Shown piece by piece: positions 1 to 19,991 of a stretch of DNA of 64,000 bases (the first letter of the stretch is position 1; each line of letters begins with the position of its first letter). This DNA comes from a virus (Duplodnaviria; Heunggongvirae; Uroviricota; Caudoviricetes): positions 25,730 through 89,729 of IMG/VR virus record IMGVR_UViG_3300012956_000001; one strand, written 5' to 3'. A program made the position numbers and the translations under genes. The notes below the pieces were generated by a model. The model saw only the letters and a program-made list of their open reading frames with translations. It did not search any database and was not told the DNA's origin.

Positions 1-117
1 GACTTTTGGGGCCAGAAATGGTCCCAAAACCCCCGTTTGTAACGAACCTAAGCGCTTATGGGGCACCAACTTAGGTGACCCCTTGACTTTTGGATACAAC
101 TAGGCTATATTCAATCT

Positions 118-2232
118 ATGACAAATAACAACCCGCACATCGCCGCCCGTATTCAAGAGAAGGTTGACCGCATCAAGAATTCCCACTCCGCGTTCTGGAT
201 TGGGTCGGATGTGGAAGATTTGACGCGTAAGGTGGAGGTCGGTTCGCTCGACTACCTCGATCGTCTCCGTACCGTACAGCGTGCCGTCGGCAATTTCGTG
301 AAGATTGTCACGGGCGAAGAAATCCCGGTATTGTACTCGAGCGGTAAGTCGAGCTATACGACGGGGAAGGAAGTGGTGCTCTCGGCGGATATTGATCCGA
401 CGAAGTTGGACTCTATGGTAGGCGTGGCGTTGCACGAAGGTGCACACTGCCTTCTGTCGGGCCAGTCGTTGGAGTTTCTGCAGGAGATGCACAAGCGGTT
501 CGATCATATGGTGGGCGGTCATCCGATTGTGGTGCACGCACAGCGGTTGAACATTCCGCTCACCGAAAAGAACCTGACGCCTGCGATGGGCACTGGCGGA
601 GATACCGTCATCGGTCACGTGCAGCTCGTGATGAACGTGCTCGAGGATCGGCGCATTGACTTGTGGATGTACAAGAACGCGCCGGGGTATCGTCCGTATT
701 ACGAGGAAATGTACAACGAGCACTGGCACAGCAAGGATATCGACAAGGCACTGCAAGATCCGAAGTTCCGTGAGCTGGCGGTCCGCAACTATTTCTTGTT
801 TGTCATTAATCTGACAAATACGAATTTTGACGAGACTGCACTGCCCGGTTTGGCGAAGATCAAGCAGATCGCCAACCTGACGGAGAAGGGTTTGTCTGCC
901 CGTGGTAATGATGATCCGGGCTTCCGTAATTGGAAGGCCGGACTGCCGACGAACACGAGTCCGGTGTCGGATTTGACGAAGTTCCCGAAGCTCTTTGCTG
1001 ATGCCGTTGCAATTGTGACGGCGATCTATTCGGGTTCGACTATCGTGGAACCGCCGAAGTCCGACAAGGATGATGAAGGCGAGGAAGGTGGTGAAGGCGA
1101 CGGTGAAGGTGAGGGCGATCAGCCGGGCGATTTGCCTAACCTTGATGGCGGCATCCCGCGTAAGGTGTCGCGGTCGGCGATGGAAAAGGCTCTCGCCAAG
1201 CAGATTCAATTCGCCAACGGTCAGTTGACGAAGGAAGAAATTAGTGCCGAAGTGAAGGCACAGCTCGATCAGCTCGAGCAGACTTCCGCCTCGATTGTGG
1301 ACGTTGAAGGAGACTTCCTTCCCCGCAACGTGAAGGCGCGAGTGATTGTGTACCGGGATATCACCAAGGAAACGGTCAAGAAGGATGCATTTCCGTTTAA
1401 GTATAATTCGTATTATAGTCGGAACGGTGCTGCACAGATCAATCCCGACATGACCAAGGCGTTGAAGGATGGAATTCGGTTGGGTGCCATTCTGGCGAAT
1501 CGTATCCGCGTGATGCAGGACGAACGTCCGCTCACGTTCAATCGTCAGGAGCACGGCCGTTTGGACAAGCGCCGCGTGGCGATGTTGGGTACTGGTGCAA
1601 TGGATGTGTTTTCCTTCACGATTACCGAGCGTCGTAAGCCCGCCAATCTGTGGATGGACGTTGACTTCTCTGGTTCGATGAACGGTGAGAAGTCGGGAAA
1701 GGCGATGACTGTCGCGGTGGCGATTGCCTACGCCGCAGAACAGACCCGGACGTTGAACACCACGATTGCCGTCCGTGACGGTGGGCATGACTGTGCTCGA
1801 GTGGCGATTCTGTATGACTCGCGTAAGCACCAGTTCAACAAGTTGCGTCATATCCTGCCGTATATCGGGGTTCAGGGTGGTACGCCTGAGTCGCTCGCCT
1901 TCGAAGCGATCAAGGATGAAATGATGCAGATGTACAAGGATGAACGGAAGTATTTTATCAATCTGTCGGACGGTGAACCGGGTCACGGTTTCACGTACAA
2001 GGGTAAGGGTTACTCTTACGGCGGCGAGGAGGCGTACAAGCACACGCGGCGCCTGATGAATGATTTCCGTGGAATGGGCATTAAGGTATTGTCCTATTAC
2101 ATCGGCGATTCCCGGTACGAGCACGAGGGTTTCAAGAAGATGTACGGGCAGGATGCTCGGTTTATCGACCCGAAGAACATCGGTCAGATTGCCGGTACGA
2201 TCAACAAGCTGTTGATGGGTGATGACAAGTAA
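118..2232 (+). CDS. VWA-domain protein with N-terminal HExxH metallopeptidase-like domain (CobT-like MoxR partner)
   Basis: LHEGAH motif, acidic linker, MIDAS DFSGSM...GGTP...SDGEP; MoxR-type AAA nearby. Confidence 0.85.
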   Translation: MTNNNPHIAARIQEKVDRIKNSHSAFWIGSDVEDLTRKVEVGSLDYLDRLRTVQRAVGNFVKIVTGEEIPVLYSSGKSSYTTGKEVVLSADIDPTKLDSMVGVALHEGAHCLLSGQSLEFLQEMHKRFDHMVGGHPIVVHAQRLNIPLTEKNLTPAMGTGGDTVIGHVQLVMNVLEDRRIDLWMYKNAPGYRPYYEEMYNEHWHSKDIDKALQDPKFRELAVRNYFLFVINLTNTNFDETALPGLAKIKQIANLTEKGLSARGNDDPGFRNWKAGLPTNTSPVSDLTKFPKLFADAVAIVTAIYSGSTIVEPPKSDKDDEGEEGGEGDGEGEGDQPGDLPNLDGGIPRKVSRSAMEKALAKQIQFANGQLTKEEISAEVKAQLDQLEQTSASIVDVEGDFLPRNVKARVIVYRDITKETVKKDAFPFKYNSYYSRNGAAQINPDMTKALKDGIRLGAILANRIRVMQDERPLTFNRQEHGRLDKRRVAMLGTGAMDVFSFTITERRKPANLWMDVDFSGSMNGEKSGKAMTVAVAIAYAAEQTRTLNTTIAVRDGGHDCARVAILYDSRKHQFNKLRHILPYIGVQGGTPESLAFEAIKDEMMQMYKDERKYFINLSDGEPGHGFTYKGKGYSYGGEEAYKHTRRLMNDFRGMGIKVLSYYIGDSRYEHEGFKKMYGQDARFIDPKNIGQIAGTINKLLMGDDK

Positions 2233-2305
2233 GTTGCTCACATTTGGTGGGCTTGACAAACGATCACTAATGAAGTATCTTTAAGCTTCAACAAAGGAGT
2301 TAGTA

Positions 2306-2659
2306 ATGTCACGAATCGTTAACAAGGATCGCTCGATTTTGCTCCAGCGATTCATTACCCTTATCGGTGACGCCCGAGAGCCATTCGTGGAAACGGGCCG
2401 AAAGTTCGATAAGGTATATGTCGAAGGTCGTGTCCGATACTTCGTCGCTCGGTCGGATCAGGGCGCCGAGGTTAAGGAAGGCGACATCTACGGCGCCAAG
2501 TCGAAGCTCGCTCCCAACTTCCGCTGGTATTTTGGGAATTTGGCGAATGCAGGAAATTGGGATTGGTCGGACTTTCACGGCCGCCCAGTGGATGACAAGA
2601 GTGTAATGCCTGTGAAGGGTTACGGCCGATATACGCATTACAAGCGAATCGAGGCCTAA
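2306..2659 (+). CDS. Phage hypothetical protein (paralog of 6766-7134)
   Basis: Own promoter (TTGACA 2253, TATCTT 2276) and AGGAG RBS; shares GRK-x-x-KV...VRYFV...I(Y/F)-x-A-x-x...PNF with 6766-7134. Confidence 0.8.
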   Translation: MSRIVNKDRSILLQRFITLIGDAREPFVETGRKFDKVYVEGRVRYFVARSDQGAEVKEGDIYGAKSKLAPNFRWYFGNLANAGNWDWSDFHGRPVDDKSVMPVKGYGRYTHYKRIEA

Positions 2660-2881
2660 GTGTTCAAGGATTACCGGGGGACTGAGTTGGTGCCTGGTGT
2701 CCGAGTCGCTTACAATCGGTCAGGCGAAGTGAAACTAGGTACGCTGGTGTATATCGCACCAAGTTCGAAGAAGTGGACATTCACCTATGCTCCGAATCCA
2801 CTGGCGACGATCAAGGTACTTGGCGACGATGGTAAGGAATCGACGCTCGCCAGAATCACGAACCTTGTAGTATTGGAGTAG
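2660..2881 (+). CDS. Small hypothetical protein
   Basis: Abuts upstream stop; coding-like composition. Confidence 0.6.
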   Translation: MFKDYRGTELVPGVRVAYNRSGEVKLGTLVYIAPSSKKWTFTYAPNPLATIKVLGDDGKESTLARITNLVVLE

Positions 2882-18730: not shown

Positions 18731-18748
18731 AAGTATATTATTAGTATA

Positions 18749-18823
18749 ATCAACATCGTCTAATGGCTTAGGACACTCTTCGGCGGACGCCGTGAAATGT
18801 GGGTTCGAATCCCACTGTTGATT
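18749..18823 (+). ncRNA. tRNA-like RNA with tetraloop hairpin replacing the anticodon arm
   Basis: Acceptor atcaaca/tgttgat, normal D and T arms, cggc-ggac-gccg. Confidence 0.65.
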
Positions 18824-19035
18824 TGTCAGTTCAATAAGGGTGACTGACTGGGAATCGGGTGAGGTAGGCATACCTCATTACGTGAACCGAAAACGGCCCT
18901 ACGTCAGTAGCGAGAGTAAGGTGGCACGCCAAGCCACCGAAACCAATACGGCCAGGCACTGTATTGGCTTCTGACAAGAGTCGGGTGGAGCCGCCGACTT
19001 AAATCCACGGCCGCCAGGCGGGGCATGATGTGTTG

Positions 19036-19096
19036 TCACACAGATTACTCGCCTGAAAAGGTCGAAATTGCCAAATATCGGTGATTTCGACCTTTT
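19036..19096 (+). terminator. Intrinsic terminator (possibly bidirectional)
   Basis: aaaaggtcgaaattgcc...ggtgatttcgacctttt. Confidence 0.8.
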
Positions 19097-19991
19097 GTTG
19101 TGCCCGGGATTGTAACGAAAGTGTACAATTGAACTGACCCCTTGACAGGCATTTCTGAGCCCTTATATTTCACATATCTTCAACAGGGAACGATACGATG
19201 GGCTTTCTTCTGATTCTTGGTTCGATGTTCGGTGGCGCGGTGGTCATCAGCTGGTTGTCTGACCTCGCCAGGGCACGAAAGGAGGCAGACCTCCAACATC
19301 AGTTGAACATCGTCAAGCTCGCCTTTGAGAAGGAGGCGGTTGACAAGGCTGTGACCGTCAAGGAGCTTAACCGTTGTATCTGTGGTGCCCCACTAGGAGC
19401 GTGTGATGATGAGTAATTGTTCTGAGTGTAACGACCTTGAAATCGATCTGAGCCGAGCGAACGCTCGAGCCGATGATGCCGAACACCGAGCGATGATGGC
19501 AGAGATGGATCTTCTCGCTGCCGAGCGGAGAATCCGAGAACTTGAACATGAGATTTTTGATCTCGAACGGCGTATCGAGCAGACTGATGACTGATTCAAT
19601 TGACGCCGAACAGGCACATCGCCTGGCCCTGCACTTCGAAGCCGAATATGGGCTCGCCAAGGGCTTGGAAGAGGCAACAGCCAGGCTATCAAAGAGCTGG
19701 ACCTTGGTGGCTCGCCGGCGTTTGGCTATGGCCATCGAGCTGCTCGAGAAGCGACTCGACAGCGTGCACACGATCACTTGACAACCTAATGGGAATGGGG
19801 TATATTCCCATTAACCAATAACCCAAGGTATCTGACGATGGCTACTCAGGATGACGCACAGCCAGTGACCAGCCAGGACGCCCCGGCACCTAGCCAGGCC
19901 ACGACACAGGTACCTTTTGACGAAGCTTGGGACGAGGCCGACTTGGAAGCCGAAGTGCGTCTCTTGCTTGAAATCGATTAAGGAGAATATC

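Follow-up and report, generated by a model that had tools for sequence, protein, structure and literature searches.

What does a short DNA sequence do when it is repeated, letter for letter, in front of one early promoter after another? A stretch of 64,000 nucleotides, which we call the window, raises this question. It comprises bases 25730-89729 of the 217,729-bp IMG/VR phage record IMGVR_UViG_3300012956_000001 (a record with a 123-bp terminal repeat), and the 9-mer TTGTAACGA, which we call the box, recurs through its first 19 kb. An earlier reading of the letters alone, hereafter the sequence-only reading, had taken the box for the operator of a dimeric factor, either an activator or a repressor, that sits on the same DNA face as RNA polymerase and defines an early regulon. 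We consider it fairly likely that the box is an upstream promoter element that acts positively and from one specific DNA face, with its centre near -42, -52 or -62.

The phage encodes a gp23-type major capsid protein (MCP), a portal, a tail sheath and a family-B DNA polymerase (PolB). Its nearest isolates, among them Microcystis phage Mel-JY01 (54% identity in the capsid and 40% in PolB) and Flavobacterium immuto phages (53.5% in the capsid), are distant, and on the strength of this distance and of the gene content we regard it as a distant T4-like myovirus. A search for near-identical DNA in phage isolates returned tRNA matches only.

The box and its copies

The window has 18 exact copies of the 9-mer where 0.71 would be expected, and none of 100 shuffles reached 18. 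Every copy is on the plus strand, which also holds all of the window's large open reading frames (ORFs); 17 copies fall between 37 and 19118, and one orphan lies at 50938. Once the exact copies are set aside, one-mismatch copies in the window are near chance level, so the box is either perfect or absent. The genome in full has 24 copies in forward and 2 in reverse orientation, with 23 forward copies and 1 reverse copy lying within genome 18,274-44,847; tRNA arms aside, the 9-mer and 10-mer most in excess over expectation in this genome are those of the box. The cluster falls together with a 30-kb island whose guanine-plus-cytosine (GC) content is 52-56%, versus about 42% in the rest of the genome. 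This GC-rich early region corresponds to window 1-21800, or genome 18.0-47.5 kb, and begins 7.5 kb before the window. Upstream of the window, at a distance of 3.6-7.5 kb, are six further forward copies and one reverse copy. Because the cluster crosses the window edge, the sequence-only reading saw its right-hand two thirds; the 17 boxes that it described up to about 19 kb are all there, and the cluster continues to their left.

A sigma70-like promoter lies downstream of 22 of the 24 forward copies, so that the association of box and promoter proposed for the window also emerges, strand-specifically, from a scan of the whole phage genome. Promoter-like sites as such are also frequent in the first 20 kb of the window (43, where 15.5 +/- 3.8 would be expected); every high-scoring site among them is on the plus strand.

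When the copies are aligned on the box, the conserved element is longer than the nine bases first described, although these do form an invariant core. Positions -7 to -1 before the box read C-S-S-S-S-R-W (for example CCCCGGT or CGGGGAA), position +9 is A in 22 of 24 copies and position +10 in 19 of 24, and the 3' side is A/T-rich (AAnTTT). The element as a whole is asymmetric and about 18 bp long: a C/G tract comes first, then TTGTAACGA as the invariant core, and then AA. The 9-mer does not vary, whereas the -35 hexamer, the linker and the core spacer all do.

A dimeric factor bound to a dyad finds no support in this anatomy. Regular sites are single, asymmetric and oriented in the same direction as the promoter, and the dyad around GTAAC makes only three of its four possible pairs. 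The more symmetric variants that had been pointed out are real: ATTGTGACAAT stands at 10002, and a reverse-oriented TTGTAACAA with a C/G flank at 10027-10036. Pairing, whether as inverted sites or as two TGTAAC cores spaced by 11 bp, is limited to a few special loci. One, at genome 18274-18299 on the island's left edge, is an inverted box pair; another is the composite TTGTAACGATTGTGTAAC, with two cores 11 bp apart, which is found in all lineages and adjoins genes for an AAA+/AT-hook protein or for GP88.

Spacing to the -35 hexamer in six phages

Recomputing the distances from box to -35 hexamer for the 17 promoter-linked boxes of the window returned the values reported before: 12 bp at four promoters, always with TTGCCA, 22 bp at seven and 32 bp at two, with 14, 18, 20 and 46 bp as outliers (Table 1). 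Over the whole genome the offsets are 12 (five promoters), 14, 20, 21-23 (ten), 32-34 (four) and 46; the weak promoter at 3485, with its offset of 18, was below the score cut-off of the pooled spacing analysis. Copies in one genome are paralogs, and the spacing within a single phage could therefore be inheritance alone.

Comparison between phages separates these possibilities. By scanning for box-N12-14-TTG-N19-20-TATATT, and by adding PolB relatives, we found the same exact 9-mer upstream of sigma70-like promoters in five further phage contigs, two of which have a PolB about 51% identical to that of this phage. Contig 3300049846_001717 has 23 boxes, with offsets of 13-14 (five promoters), 18 (two), 22-24 (eight) and 33-34 (two), plus one promoter at 17. 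Contigs 3300027759_000310 and 3300024346_000008 have 8 and 9 boxes, and their offsets are all 22 (with TTGACT) or 23 (with TTCCCT). Contigs 3300035670_000038 and 3300008111_000005 supply offsets of 22, 23, 23 and 33. Among the 56 box-promoter pairs pooled from the six phages, 29 have an offset of 22-23, 11 of 12-14 and 7 of 32-34. The classes 12-14, 21-24 and 32-34 together cover 50 of the 56 pairs, the exceptions being 18 (twice), 20, 46, 50 and 61, and the Rayleigh R of the pool peaks at 0.77 for a period of 10-10.5 bp. Box positions thus follow the whole-helical-turn rule of face-dependent activator sites of the class I/II type. If the start site is placed 7 nt after the -10 and the box is taken as an 11-mer, its centres fall near -42, -52 and -62.

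The linkers tell whether this regularity was merely copied. In 20 promoters the linker is exactly 13 nt long, and yet linkers are 33% identical when taken from different genomes and 51% identical when taken from the same one; a length that is kept while the sequence is free indicates that spacing has been selected, and not just copied. The box flanks also differ by lineage (CCCCGGT, CCGTCGA, CCCGAAGGAA) around an identical 9-mer, which excludes simple copying as the cause of its invariance. The same-face geometry proposed by the sequence-only reading is borne out to this extent, in that offsets stepped by about 10 bp recur in five relatives with unrelated linkers.

Exact composites of the box with this phage's own promoter types had no match in IMG/VR, and the pattern CCCC-N2-3-box gave single matches only, among the contigs listed. 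A MoxR/CobS-like protein used as bait returned 80 marine low-GC contigs, in which boxes were absent. Box enrichment was likewise absent in the phages with the nearest capsids, namely Microcystis phage Mel-JY01, a Flavobacterium immuto phage and a 484-kb uncultured phage.

Table 1. Boxes and associated promoters in the window (window coordinates; offset, box to -35, in bp)
Feature	Span	Strand	-35 hexamer (position)	Offset	-10	Downstream gene or remark
Boxed promoter	37..111	+	TTGACT (83-88)	46 (off-ladder)	TATATT (106-111)	Box 37-45; 7-bp inverted repeat in linker; 704-aa ORF 118-2232
Boxed promoter	3485..3531	+	TTGACA (3503-3508)	18	TAAGTT (weak)	Box 3485-3493; MoxR/CbbQ-like AAA gene 3581-4774
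Boxed promoter	4843..4890	+	TTGACT (4863)	20	TATATT	Gene start 4915
Boxed promoter	5963..6023	+	TTGCCG (5995)	32	TATATT	GP88 (PF17338) gene 6050-6754
Boxed promoter	7179..7229	+	TTGACC (7201)	22	TATATT	Gene start 7253
Boxed promoter	7834..7883	+	TTGACG (7856)	22	TATATT	Gene start 7912, paralog of gene 8634
Boxed promoter	8554..8603	+	TTGACG (8576)	22	TATATT	Gene start 8634
Boxed promoter	9337..9387	+	TTGACG (9359)	22	TATATT	Gene start 9415
Promoter without exact box	10002..10080	+	TTGACA (10052)		TATATT (N17 spacer)	ATTGTGACAAT upstream, at 10002
Degenerate reverse-oriented box	10028-10036	-				ccccgtTTGTAACAA on minus strand; C/G flank; 8 bp before TTGACC
Boxed promoter	11109..11149	+	TTGCCA (11121)	12	TATATT	Gene start 11177
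Boxed promoter	12431..12480	+	TTGACG (12453)	22	TATATT	Gene start 12508
Boxed promoter	12878..12918	+	TTGCCA (12890)	12	TATATT	Gene start 12944
Boxed promoter	13608..13648	+	TTGCCA (13620)	12	TATATT	Gene start 13675
Boxed promoter	14173..14223	+	TTGACG (14195)	22	TATATT	Gene start 14251
Boxed promoter	15077..15117	+	TTGCCA (15089)	12	TATATT	Gene start 15146
Boxed promoter	16964..17014	+	TTGCCC (16986)	22	TATATT	
Boxed promoter	17608..17650	+	TTGCCA (17622)	14	TATATT	Gene start 17676
Boxed promoter, last of island	19110..19169	+	TTGACA (19142)	32	TATATT	Gene start 19198
Orphan tandem ATGTAACGA-TTGTAACGA	50929..50946	+				tRNA region, promoter-free downstream; probably outside the regulon

Direction of effect and candidate factors

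A site that is phased with the promoter could either help or hinder polymerase. A strict promoter pattern returned 39 plus-strand sites in the genome, 31 of them in the island, where 20 are boxed and 11 box-less. The consensus hexamer TTGACA is present in 2 of 20 boxed versus 11 of 19 box-less promoters (Fisher p=0.002, over sites that include non-independent paralogs). There is also a second promoter class, seen at this phage's rIIA promoter (genome 22096) and at six promoters of two relatives, in which cacTTCCCTTT stands where the -35 would be, at a constant 23 bp downstream of the box; TTCCCT is a hexamer that sigma70 should read poorly. Since boxed -35 hexamers are weaker, and since the box serves promoters with this pseudo -35, a positive element is favoured, and activation appears more likely than repression.

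The box would then probably be a docking site for a protein that helps RNA polymerase to start early genes. In the mechanism that we envisage, every box would be occupied, in most cases by one unit, by a sequence-specific protein that shares a DNA face with the host sigma70 holoenzyme. There it would recruit or stabilise RNA polymerase, touching sigma region 4 when centred at -42 and the alpha subunit's C-terminal domain (alpha-CTD) when further upstream, and such a contact would make up for sub-consensus -35 hexamers. Boxed early genes would thereby form one co-regulated class, apart from those with box-less consensus promoters, tRNA genes among others. The protein might be a host reader of TGTAAC, either OmpR/RpaB-like or sigma-4-like; it might also come from the phage and be available upon injection or shortly thereafter.

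Several observations weigh against this reading. The 11 box-less promoters of the island are equally good, and several of them drive tRNA genes. In one relative three offsets are off-phase, one of 17 and two of 18. Relatives have three promoters at which an inverted box precedes the -35 by 8 bp, with the degenerate form at window 10028 as a further case, and orientation is therefore not absolute. Activator sites are as a rule degenerate, and a perfectly conserved 9-mer is unusual among them. Paralogy within genomes makes both the counts and the p-value overstate independence. Finally, we recognised no candidate DNA-binding regulator among the phage proteins; in particular, OmpR-type, MotA-type (PF09114) and sigma region 2 or 4 domains were all missing from the phage genome.

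As for the box-less tRNA promoters, three with full consensus (TTGACA, N17, TATATT) stand directly before tRNA genes at window 17936-18329, and those at 18182 and 18301 are identical through the spacer. The window as a whole carries 59 tRNA genes and one tmRNA gene.

A reader of the box need not be a separate protein. Host alpha-CTD, either native or modified by the phage, could read it directly as a non-canonical UP element, and T4 Alt is a precedent for an injected phage enzyme that modifies alpha. Taken as an 11-mer, the box extends over about -47 to -37 or -57 to -47, the very stretches that Estrem and colleagues (Estrem et al. 1999) reportedly defined as the proximal and distal UP subsites. 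Key A residues have been named at -41 to -43 (PMC4390567), and the box is A/T-rich on its 3' side. UP subsites, however, are A/T tracts read through the minor groove, whereas the box has invariant G/C positions and a C/G 5' flank; against the A/T-tract requirement for -59 to -38, its position fits and its sequence fails. Neither the third class at about -62 nor the inverted copies suit such a reading, which we judge improbable.

The gene that heads the island offers another kind of candidate. It encodes an AAA+ protein with an N-terminal AT-hook (genome 18394-19260), it is flanked by the most elaborate box arrays, and homologs with at least 36% identity were found in the box-bearing lineages and one further contig only. 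A structural model (pLDDT, the predicted local distance difference test, of 82) suggests a generic AAA+ fold, RuvB/CbbQ/ORC-like, and no decisive DNA-reading domain. Its AT-hook peptide KRGRGRPKK recurs in a 146-aa Zn-ribbon protein (genome 16282-16722) at the left edge of the island, a homolog of which occurs only in the closest box-rich relative.

Both the distribution of this gene and its box arrays would suit a phage-encoded repressor for shut-off or timing, made early or in the middle phase, with the box as the operator through which boxed promoters are silenced together. One invariant site across about 22 early promoters is what a single switch would need, and phasing is also expected where repression works by contact with RNA polymerase, as when phi29 p4 represses A2c by trapping the enzyme through alpha-CTD. 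The site lies upstream of the -35, though, and not over the core promoter or the start site; the weaker -35 hexamers and pseudo -35s fit activation better, and no repressor-like protein was recognised in the phage. We therefore see a repressor as unlikely. We hold it to be unlikely, too, that the phages have an early-promoter specificity of their own, in which an unrecognised protein reads the invariant 9-mer much as DnaA reads its box and acts on host polymerase from three helically equivalent positions, making the GC-rich island a separate early genome compartment. Such a factor would be virion-delivered or immediate-early, and the conserved AT-hook AAA+ protein could be one candidate.

GP88 (PF17338) is conserved next to boxes, and is 64-82% identical in the closest relatives, on contigs of 197-231 kb. 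We rejected it as the box factor: it belongs to a very large family, and of 80 other GP88 loci 79 lack a box cluster. In two relatives, boxes near the GP88 and AAA+ genes adjoin the DnaA-box consensus TTATCCACA and repeated TGATAAAAC iterons. TTATCCACA occurs three times in 3300008111_000005 (1290-1440) and at least once in 3300035670_000038 (10400-13200), where, judging by these motifs, the cluster may be a replication origin. No such cluster was present in this phage.

Known binding sites were compared with the box as well. The cyanobacterial RpaB site HLR1 consists of two copies of (G/T)TTACA(T/A)(T/A) (PMC6525291), and the reverse complement of the box, with the W at -1, yields one perfect octamer (GTTACAAW). 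The special loci with two TGTAAC cores 11 bp apart likewise resemble sites of the OmpR/PhoB family. HLR1 requires two octamers separated by 2 nt, however, and the box supplies a single perfect one; the 23 regular sites lack a second repeat, the second position there being AAnTTT with at most 5 of 8 bases matching, and the HLR1 reading was rejected. Beyond the 54% MCP identity to the Microcystis phage, which is itself box-less, we found no cyanobacterial link. The NtcA site (GTA-N8-TAC) is not present. A T4 middle (MotA) promoter was rejected too, as the box lies upstream of a retained -35 and does not replace it at -30, and PF09114 is absent.

The box might instead be the -35 of a second, overlapping promoter for a host or phage sigma factor of the extracytoplasmic function (ECF) type. 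TGTAACGAA matches the -35 consensus of B. subtilis SigX, tgtAACnww, which is followed 16-17 bp downstream by a -10 of CGwCww (quoted in PMC8024623), and the composite TTGTAACRATTGTGTAACA, conserved at the island edge, adjoins ECF sigma genes in Micavibrio and Bacteroidales genomes. This 19-mer has 37 exact matches in 185,579 species genomes versus about 9 expected, and ECF sigma genes stand 90-180 nt away from it in both Micavibrio (4 genomes) and Porphyromonadaceae/Muribaculaceae. But neither a CGwC-type -10 nor any other conserved element stands at a fixed 16-17 bp from the box, and the phage has no recognisable sigma region 2/4 domain. Nor is the 9-mer enriched in the four Micavibrio genomes, and we rejected Micavibrio as the host. 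Lacking a -10, the ECF promoter was discarded and is highly improbable.

Early island, cassettes and known systems

The early regulon that the sequence-only reading proposed is plausible, because the region carries rIIA and rIIB. Besides these homologs, the island holds a MoxR/CbbQ-like ATPase, two GNAT-type acetyltransferases and many ORFans, with most ORFs lacking a recognised family, and this content is what would be expected of a T4-type early region. To our knowledge, early-gene timing in T4-like phages outside the T-even group is poorly known, and many of them lack MotA and AsiA. The box regions of all five relatives are also GC-richer than their surroundings. The split is 0.47-0.51 versus about 0.38 in 3300035670_000038, and the early region of 3300049846_001717 reaches 0.56-0.59; base composition points to a division between early genes and the rest that is kept across these phages.

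Two further features of the genome are recorded here. CGATCG has 2 copies versus about 40 expected and GCGATCGC has none in the whole genome, a scarcity that looks like avoidance of a PvuI-type restriction site; CGATCG is present in one relative, 3300035670_000038. TCATATGCA and GCATCATATGCA recur 14 times at genome 118-150 kb (window-equivalent 92316-124031). We rejected TCATATGCA as a promoter motif, since both are coding repeats (S-A-S-Y-A type) of tail-fibre-like ORFs.

Boxed promoters belong to repeated cassettes, which run in the order hairpin, box, sigma70-type promoter, conserved leader with a Shine-Dalgarno (SD) sequence, and start codon. Downstream of the box come TTGNCN, 16-17 nt, TATATT, a leader with GGAG and then ATG or GTG. 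A stable hairpin lies about 10-35 nt upstream of most boxes, at a variable distance (mean z of -2.7 versus shuffles). Few of these hairpins carry a T-run, and canonical terminator-like sites are not enriched before boxes (25 versus 17.2 +/- 3.9).

This build raises the question of whether the box has any direct role in initiation, or is instead the homology or target core through which hairpin-promoter cassettes spread, by shuffling or by a site-specific enzyme. The promoters at 12878 and 13608 are identical and precede unrelated genes. The same leader type is found with different spacing classes and with a box-less promoter, and an orphan box at genome 20804 is followed by a hairpin only, and then by a second box at 20876. 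Identical promoters, mosaic leaders and the orphan box may be read as signs of cassette shuffling. Gene conversion within one genome, however, cannot yield an identical 9-mer, with different flanks, in phages about 50% diverged in PolB, and a fixed linker length with free sequence and the link to -35 quality would both go unexplained. As a full account of the box, recombination is quite improbable.

An upstream promoter element remains our preferred reading. The box is a clear-cut cis-element whose geometry can be put to the test, and it is kept in at least six large phages, all uncultured. About two thirds of the promoters in a compositionally distinct early region carry it, and it provides a handle for factor pull-down and for predicting early regulons in metagenomic phage genomes.

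Phage activators that work next to or in place of the -35 include Mu Mor, T4 MotA (box at -30), P2 Ogr and lambda CII. As with these, one short motif near the -35 of host-polymerase promoters here defines a phage regulon. They have one fixed position, though, and usually replace the -35, whereas in this phage the -35 is mostly kept; Mor, for example, acts from -43.5 (PMC4390567).

The box also resembles class I/II activator sites and UP elements, in that it lies upstream of the -35, moves in steps of one helical turn and accompanies sub-consensus core promoters. For UP elements and class I activators, a position on the polymerase face of the helix is required, and CRP sites of sigma70 promoters are found at -41.5, -61.5 and -71.5 (PMC4132738). 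Unlike class I/II sites, the box is single, asymmetric and 9-11 bp long rather than a 22-bp dyad, and its commonest class is the one near -52; unlike an UP element, it is not A/T-rich.

The closest likeness in overall build is to the promoter-early stem-loop (PeSL) cassettes of T4-like phages (Arbiol et al. 2010, PMC2839356; Comeau et al. 2014, PMC4122927). In both, a stem-loop lies directly upstream of a sigma70-like early promoter that is followed by an SD sequence and a start codon, and the unit is repeated between small, variable and mostly ORFan early genes of a T4-like myovirus, with possible signs of shuffling here. In PeSLs the sequence upstream of the -35 is no more than AT-rich in general, whereas here an invariant 9-mer with a C/G-rich flank stands at offsets of 12, 22 or 32 bp, and the whole early region is about 10% GC-richer than the rest of the genome. 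The mechanism class, a phased upstream promoter element, is already familiar, and so is the PeSL build; what is added here is the phased box. The element therefore seems best filed as a PeSL-type early cassette plus a sharply conserved, helically phased upstream box, which would give the PeSL cassette idea a third, regulatory module.

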